A DNA stretch of 4,368 bases from the IMG/VR virus record IMGVR_UViG_2671180915_000012. The stretch is one strand, 5' to 3'. The notes beneath the pieces were generated by a model. That model was not told where the DNA came from and did no database searches. It saw only the letters and a program-made list of their open reading frames with translations. This stretch comes from a virus (taxonomy: Duplodnaviria; Heunggongvirae; Uroviricota; Caudoviricetes). Made by a program: the position numbers and the translations under genes. This document shows, one piece after another, positions 998-1,168 of the stretch (position 1 is its first letter; each line of letters starts with the position of its first letter).

Positions 998-1168
998 ATG
1001 TCAGAACGTAAAGACTCAAAATCACGCCGTAATTATCTCGTTAAATGTTCCTGCCCAAACTGCACCCAAGAGTCAGAACACAGTTTTTCAAGAGTACAAA
1101 AAGGTGCCCTTTTGATCTGCCCTCATTGCAACAAAGTATTCCAGACAAATCTTAAAGCTGTAGCTTGA
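998..1168 (+). CDS. ynfU: Small zinc-ribbon protein, 56 aa (YnfU-like)
   Basis: ATG at 998 is preceded by AGGAAAAG (SD, ~7 nt spacing); stop TGA 1166-1168. Protein MSERKDSKSRRNYLVKCSCPNCTQ...ICPHCNKVFQTNLKAVA has two CxxC pairs. Length, motif and position between holin and cspB match my memory of K-12 YnfU; symbol is from memory, not a search. The track's upstream ATG at 947 lacks an SD. Confidence 0.6.
   Translation: MSERKDSKSRRNYLVKCSCPNCTQESEHSFSRVQKGALLICPHCNKVFQTNLKAVA

Follow-up and report, generated by a model that had tools for sequence, protein, structure and literature searches.

The open reading frame at positions 998 to 1168 (plus strand) of the window, our term for the whole 4,368-nucleotide stretch of viral DNA analyzed here, is with high confidence the known and named gene ynfU: a stand-alone, translated gene, maintained by purifying selection and provided with its own Shine-Dalgarno sequence, that encodes a predicted C4 zinc ribbon and belongs to a three-gene cassette, ynfU-cspB-cspF. 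This cassette is the mobile unit, and in other Enterobacteriaceae it occupies varied and ordinary chromosomal sites. The cargo between Q and the holin gene of Qin is accordingly one imported chromosomal cassette rather than several separate inserts. The gene itself is already known: it has a name, an annotation, models in both Pfam and NCBIfam, and published evidence of translation. Its strong linkage to cspB/cspF-type genes across many genera is absent from the ynfU literature that we searched, and is therefore the addition made by the present analysis. The value of ynfU is as a starting point for work on a small protein that is still an orphan, relatively abundant among those newly found, and its linkage to csp genes provides a testable hypothesis on cold shock and on RNA or ribosome binding.

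Identity of the reading frame and evidence for its translation

The frame runs from ATG to TGA and contains 56 codons, for a product of 56 amino acids plus the stop. That product, MSERKDSKSRRNYLVKCSCPNCTQESEHSFSRVQKGALLICPHCNKVFQTNLKAVA, has a mass of 6.4 kDa and a pI of 9.4, with 10 Lys or Arg residues against 4 Asp or Glu. It passes the cutoffs of both curated models for the YnfU family. The Pfam model PF23499 (YnfU) is matched over positions 1-49 of 49, with E=2.5e-31 and 107.7 bits (cutoff, 27), and the NCBIfam model NF038384 over positions 1-51 of 52, with 79.8 bits (cutoff, 36). Of 5,426 complete E. coli genomes, 1,651 contain a match to a 451-nucleotide query drawn from around the frame; the median copy number is one and the highest is two, and the E. 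coli matches listed are all annotated "ynfU: putative zinc-binding protein YnfU". RefSeq annotation under a match of 100% identity names the gene directly; the allele in the window is shared without change by CFT073, S88, APEC O1 and others. CFT073 and K-12 MG1655 have a common layout, rrrQ, ydfR, essQ, ynfU, cspB, cspF, ynfS, ydfT (Q), ydfU, and ynfU of K-12 (b4776) is annotated within the cryptic prophage Qin, between essQ and cspB. The E. coli YnfU that serves as representative of its sequence cluster (P0001) is 96% identical to the window product and is the same gene, the differences, D6N and K53N in P0001, being allelic only.

An earlier note on this DNA, made from the sequence alone, had drawn attention to a 56-residue frame with two CxxC pairs between holin and cspB, and the RefSeq layout agrees with that description. 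The note presented it as a gene whose function it did not recognize. The gene proves to be named and annotated as ynfU, and the ynfU literature searched reports no function for it.

The start codon is assigned to position 998. A Shine-Dalgarno sequence read from the window, CAGGA (986..990, plus strand, with the AGGA core at 987-990), lies 7 nucleotides before the ATG and is conserved across about 75 species loci, which bears out the good ribosome-binding site claimed earlier. A start farther upstream, at ATG 947, would give a protein of 73 amino acids; it is ruled out because in-frame stops lie directly upstream of the conserved Met, the first residue of a conserved MSxRK, in Klebsiella and Salmonella. 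Translation from 998 in the window is supported by the conserved Shine-Dalgarno sequence, by the conserved start and by these upstream in-frame stops in other genera.

Published work on K-12 provides direct evidence. Weaver, Mohammad, Buskirk and Storz (2019) discovered ynfU by start-codon ribosome profiling with Onc112 and retapamulin, and confirmed the K-12 protein through a chromosomal SPA tag and immunoblot (10.1101/511675). In a lysogen grown in LB at 37 C, YnfU reached a level that was the highest among the small proteins newly identified in that study, whose authors described "a pair of zinc knuckles ... CPXC" and obtained by threading a moderate match to PA0128 (10.1101/511675). PIRT-seq, a transposon-reporter screen, detected ynfU again (PMC12350097). 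The start-codon profiling and tagging suggested as checks in the earlier note had already been published, then, with a positive outcome for the 96%-identical K-12 gene, and PIRT-seq agrees; since the K-12 orthologue has been both profiled and SPA-tagged, a translation signal is on record. The ynfU literature searched gives discovery, motif and annotation for ynfU/b4776, and nothing further as to function. It reports no cold response, ligand or zinc-binding measurement for YnfU, and no expression data at low temperature were found in it.

Conservation and breadth of the YnfU family

Selection was analyzed over 80 species-representative loci, which supplied 73 distinct orthologous CDS segments. 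Summed entropy at codon positions 1, 2 and 3 of these segments was 29.0, 15.3 and 59.3, respectively, and dN/dS relative to the window ynfU ranged from 0.04 to 0.13. The gene is under strong purifying selection. Since 67 ORFs of 25 amino acids or more occur in the window, an ORF alone means little, and a chance frame in AT-rich intergenic DNA is one conceivable account of the region. That account is refuted by the purifying selection, by the presence of the gene in many Enterobacterales genera, by the curated models and by the published detection of the protein, and we give it essentially no credence.

The conserved positions include the two zinc knuckles and the loop between them. Residues C19, P20 and C22 of the first knuckle (CPNC, residues 19-22; window positions 1052..1063, plus strand) are present in 66 of 66 distinct sequences, as are S26, E27, H28, S29 and either Phe or Tyr at position 30 in the invariant inter-knuckle loop (SEHSF; 1073..1087, plus strand). 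In the second knuckle (CPHC, residues 41-44; 1118..1129, plus strand), P42 is likewise found in all 66, and C41 and C44 are found in 65, the sole sequence without them being a truncated copy. R32, K35, G36, L39, N12 and L14 are further invariant residues. Even the most distant relatives retain H28-S29 and the pattern CPxC-x5-HS...L[IL]CPxC. The earlier note had named a lack of conservation of the CxxC pairs as evidence that would count against its reading; the pairs are essentially invariant, in 65-66 of the 66 distinct sequences. One more cysteine, C17, was considered as a fifth ligand and rejected. The residue is retained in 64 of 66 close members, but distant relatives have I, V, E, S, T or K there, and C17 therefore lies outside the core site.

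Members of the family are 51-60 residues long, except for one truncated copy of 45 residues. The window product shows the features by which the family is recognized, namely two CPxC knuckles and SEHS(F/Y) in a small stand-alone protein of about 52-60 residues. A profile HMM searched against 1.84 billion representative sequences returned 40 hits at E<=0.001; those distant clusters that bear a name and were looked up all come from Enterobacterales (Cronobacter, Mangrovibacter, Jejubacter, Scandinavium and Erwinia). YnfU constitutes a very small and taxonomically narrow family.

Predicted zinc ribbon and remote similarities

The AF2 model of YnfU has a mean pLDDT of 71, with strands at residues 14-18, 25-29, 38-40 and 47-49 flanking the two knuckles. 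Because the four invariant cysteines, C19, C22, C41 and C44, sit on two beta-hairpin knuckles, YnfU is predicted to be a C4 zinc ribbon, in which each of two beta-hairpins bears a CxxC knuckle that would supply two ligands. The N-terminal 16-mer has a pI of 10.4. Both halves of the earlier description, a basic N-terminus and a C4 ribbon with conserved cysteines, thus hold.

With five Cys and two His among its 56 residues, and with its "zinc-binding" annotation, YnfU might be taken for a zinc buffer or metallochaperone, its role being the handling of metal. A low-frequency polymorphism between ynfU and cspB in one silver-nanoparticle evolution line points the same way, although the variant is intergenic and was present at a frequency of 0.28 in one population. 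A single structural C4 site, however, is typical of zinc that stabilizes a fold, the invariance of surface residues other than the ligands (SEHSF, R32, K35, G36) speaks for a macromolecular partner, and zinc uptake or efflux genes were not seen in the chromosomal contexts inspected. We regard metal handling as very unlikely.

Foldseek and a profile-to-PDB search (only E>=0.029) identified no significant fold or profile relative of YnfU, and gave generic zinc-ribbon matches. Since none of the remote matches passes a membership test, we treat them as leads only. The top Foldseek hits are to the archaeal protein aS21 / HVO_2753 (PDB 9o17_AZ, 9znf_BV, 6ydh, 9fhl_C and 7zhg_C), with 24-34% identity over 35-39 residues, a TM score of about 0.45 and Foldseek E values of 0.37-2. 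These proteins resemble YnfU in being stand-alone, basic and 50-60 residues long, with CPxC knuckles; in the PDB entries cited they are bound to the 30S subunit, the likeness to YnfU being a non-significant match only. They differ from it in that they do not share the SEHSF loop and come from another domain of life, and HMMER E values are 0.38-4.3. Neither in sequence nor in fold is the similarity significant enough to make YnfU a member of that group. The first zinc knuckle of eL42 (L44e) has a local motif that resembles YnfU (CPKCKTHTEHSVS versus CPNCTQESEHSFS), with E=0.62 for NCBIfam PRK05767. The best match to eL42/L44e, at E=0.029, covers 22 residues of a 92-residue protein, falls far under the family cutoffs and leaves the second knuckle unaligned. 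Against YnfU, the Pfam model Zn_Ribbon_YjdM (PF08274), for the N-terminal ribbon of PhnA/YjdM (PA0128, PDB 2akl), yields E=1.3e-4, at 22.4 bits versus a gathering score of 30.8, and the corresponding PDB profile yields E=1.3; PhnA has an additional C-terminal domain that YnfU is without.

An alignment with the DNL finger (Tim15/Zim17/Hep1, PDB 2e2z; E=0.038) covers both knuckles as well as the H-S that follows the first. The zf-DNL model (PF05180) scores 13.4 bits versus a cutoff of 27, and the D-N-L motif that defines these fingers, after the second CxxC, is absent from YnfU, which reads CPHCNKVFQTN. A ribbon might act only as a rigid scaffold in a protein-binding modulator, one that docks on a larger protein such as a chaperone, RNA polymerase or a Csp and tunes its activity, as numerous small proteins of bacteria do. 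All of the matches are below significance, the defining motif of the DNL fingers is missing, and the high positive charge of YnfU suits nucleic acid better; we find such a modulator rather unlikely.

A conserved cassette with cold-shock-domain genes

The convergent cold-shock-domain gene cspB lies at 1532..1747 (minus strand), as shown by annotation and synteny, and cspF, annotated at 2048..2260 (plus strand), is the third gene of the cassette. The Rfam cspA thermoregulator, RF01766, is recognized on cspB at 1469-1908 (minus strand) with 156.7 bits. Comparison of the window by blastn with the species loci shows a single colinear block, from 959 or 987 to 2260 or 2374, in Citrobacter, Superficieibacter and Kluyvera, and this block comprises ynfU, cspB and cspF. 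The neighborhood of ynfU could be placed for 75 loci. A cold-shock-domain gene occurs within 1 kb of ynfU in 53 of these (71%), the exact triad of ynfU (plus), a cspB-like gene (minus) and a cspF-like gene (plus) in 21, and 22 have no csp gene within 1 kb. By our own estimate, from about 9 csp genes in 4.6 Mb, a random gene would have a csp gene within 1 kb in roughly 0.4% of cases, and the observed 71% therefore represents a strong neighborhood signal. Holin or Q neighbors were seen, across the same 75 loci, only in Escherichia/Shigella and in one or two other loci. The flanks in other genera are not phage genes; they include ars genes and GmrSD in C. braakii, UmuC and AcrB in Kosakonia, and, among other chromosomal neighbors, PTS, ABC transporter, GST and tautomerase genes.

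The interval from holin to Q, 780-2682, has 37% G+C, versus 45-54% in the flanking phage genes, and the ORF itself has 40%. A deficit of about 8-9 G+C points relative to the surrounding DNA is also seen for the ORF of ynfU, with its flanks, in the other species loci. The earlier note had described an AT-rich island at 880-1260 as acquired cargo. The low G+C is real, and the limits proposed for it are wrong, the whole interval 780-2682 being low. A separate AT-rich insert bearing ynfU is ruled out by the colinear homology block and by synteny.

One arrangement in Lelliottia (loci L008-L010, 3507-4679) has the order YnaE-family gene (Pfam PF27475), ynfU and convergent csp gene, in a cluster that adjoins uvrC and pgsA-type genes and from which phage genes are absent. 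E. coli ynaE is induced by cold shock.

Our best guess as to function, put forward tentatively, places YnfU alongside the cold-shock module, as a basic ribbon that binds RNA or ribosomes. In this reading the protein would be a small adaptor for nucleic acid, making its contacts to RNA or the ribosome with the Lys/Arg-rich tail at its N-terminus and with the invariant SEHSF-R-x-QKG surface held in place by the zinc site, and would act in the same physiology as the adjacent cold-shock-domain RNA chaperones. The pI of 9.4 favors this reading, as does the fact that the best matches, though non-significant, are to ribosome-bound ribbons (eL42/L44e and aS21/HVO_2753). Nucleic-acid or ribosome binding, which the earlier note had suggested from the basic N-terminus and the ribbon, is a plausible guess that draws on these non-significant ribosomal zinc-ribbon matches only. 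Against a role in the cold or with RNA stand the 22 of 75 loci with no csp gene within 1 kb, the lack of a cspA-type leader, and expression at 37 C; because YnfU was detected at that temperature in LB, cold is not required for it. It is possible, if doubtful, that YnfU is a dedicated partner of a CspB/CspF-type module, binding RNA, the ribosome or a Csp directly, and that it aids RNA metabolism or translation at low temperature, the cassette having co-evolved with csp paralogues and having later been captured by lambdoid phages. Should that prove true, it would be the first function for YnfU and would give a reason for the persistence of prophage-borne csp paralogues.

Prophage and phage context

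The window comes from a Qin-type lambdoid prophage in which ynfU lies between Q and the holin gene. The annotated holin gene, essQ (564..779, minus strand), heads the phage lysis cassette and is divergent from ynfU; the gene for a Q-type antiterminator (ydfT/quuQ) is annotated at 2683..3435 (minus strand). Late transcription follows the minus strand from Q to the holin, and ynfU is antisense to it, just as the earlier note had said. Among 50,697 phage records, 8 carry ynfU. The order in PhiR63_1 is of the Qin type, with holin, ynfU, cspB-like and cspF-like genes, and with Q about 2 kb past cspF. Intact temperate phages bear an identical copy of ynfU; PhiR63_1 and HannyBb are two intact phages with the gene. 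In Klebsiella phage ST13-OXA48phi12.4 (locus L097, 2497-3171), a homologue of 57% identity is divergent from a different and longer holin gene, with csp genes absent nearby; the placement of ynfU beside a holin therefore recurs in an unrelated lysis cassette.

The marks by which a moron is recognized in the lambdoid Q-S interval are found here, namely position, orientation, a conserved -10-like box with a Shine-Dalgarno sequence, and atypical G+C, the unit of cargo being the whole cassette. From this classic site between Q and holin, YnfU, made in the lysogen from a promoter of its own, could serve the prophage or its lysogen, perhaps by excluding other phages or by adjusting the timing of lysis, with the csp genes as fellow passengers. 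The identical copy in intact temperate phages, the csp-free Klebsiella phage homologue in the same divergent position, and expression in a lysogen at 37 C all fit such a role. We nevertheless judge it improbable. The phage records with the gene are just those 8, a PHROGs search with YnfU gave no family match (the best, at E=0.0026, was to unannotated families), and across the 75 loci the neighbors outside Escherichia/Shigella are, with the one or two exceptions given above, neither holin nor Q, the chromosomal contexts being non-phage. A ribbon allied to the cold-shock module remains our preferred reading.

Signals for transcription

Conservation upstream of ynfU is limited to about 60 nucleotides, which comprise an (A/G)AGC(T/A)AT box, a spacer of about 17-18 nucleotides, GTGTAyGGT, CAGGA and the ATG. 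Inside GTGTAyGGT, a block conserved among 78 distinct upstream sequences, sits a TAnnGT hexamer similar to a -10 element; it is represented in the window by a putative -10 box, TACTGT (965..970, plus strand), and in most genera by TATGGT. From sequence, ynfU appears to have a putative sigma-70-type promoter of its own, in which the -35 element is weak; the transcript would start near 976-978, with a leader of about 20 nucleotides. The (A/G)AGC(T/A)AT box, at the -35 position (within window 941-990), is unlike TTGACA yet well conserved in about 75 species. It could be a binding site for a regulator.

No cspA-type 5'UTR (Rfam RF01766) was found before ynfU, the Rfam match in the window being on cspB only. 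A hairpin in the ynfU leader that would sequester the Shine-Dalgarno sequence, or act as an RNA thermometer, was considered and rejected, with z = -0.32 for the E. coli fold versus shuffled sequences. RNAalifold found no consensus structure in the leader across 30 species.

A GC-rich hairpin common to the convergent genes ynfU and cspB lies at 1231..1250 (dG -15.5 kcal/mol, z = -5.0). Its minus-strand tail, UUUUUUAUUAU, makes it a canonical intrinsic terminator, with U6 there only; the plus-strand tail, UUUAAUAUU, makes a weak terminator. Because both the U-run and the call by a terminator scanner occur on the minus strand only, the hairpin is assigned mainly as the terminator of cspB, and is bidirectional at best. 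The downstream hairpin that the earlier note had ascribed to ynfU as its own therefore exists, and belongs mainly to the convergent cspB.

An inverted repeat, GTCTGTAT...ATACAGAC, lies just past the cspB stop, at 1469-1515 (minus strand), where the Rfam cspA model places its terminal hairpin. No U-run follows the repeat, so that transcripts of cspB probably continue for about 280 nucleotides, to the hairpin at 1231-1250.

Between cspF/ynfS and the Q gene, at 2553-2582, lies another GC hairpin, AAAAACCCGCTCATCAGCGGGTTTT, with T-runs on both strands. It surfaces otherwise only as a weak hit to Rfam Phe_leader. This hairpin probably terminates cspF/ynfS on the plus strand and serves, on the minus strand, as a tR'-like terminator of the late promoter.

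Other elements in the window

The DNA that separates the 1231-1250 terminator from the cspB stop at 1532 contains a non-coding block (1262-1420, minus strand) with 72-85% identity in 14 loci outside Escherichia/Shigella, from Citrobacter, Enterobacter, Kosakonia, Yokenella, Scandinavium, Kluyvera and Superficieibacter. In Yokenella, the block stays at the 3' end of cspB though ynfU sits elsewhere in the cassette. RNAalifold folds it better on the cspB-sense strand, at -15.0 versus -6.6 kcal/mol, into three helices with 93% of cells paired. The helices contain many changes from G:U to A:U or G:C, and 4 pairs only change on both sides. The K-12 annotation is empty over this block, and no Rfam match lies above threshold. 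Small ORFs were considered here and set aside: reading of the alignments showed no conserved frame, and RNA structure on the minus strand fits the conservation better. One possibility is that cspB has a structured 3'UTR here; another is a small RNA derived from such a 3'UTR.

A 29-residue ORF at 2315-2404 (plus strand) occupies the position of K-12 ynfS (b4750), a recently annotated small protein just past cspF.

At the far end of the window, matches to other E. coli genomes end at position 4270, and a search with the whole window finds a median of 5 places per genome, many of them on plasmids. Together these observations suggest that the tail (about 4271-4368) is the end of a multi-copy insertion sequence that cuts the DUF968/ydfU gene. 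That gene is cut at about 4270, leaving 264 amino acids here versus 329-349 elsewhere. Within the tail, an ATG at 4329 starts the peptide MTKNTRFSPEVRQR, which may belong to an orfA of the IS3 family.
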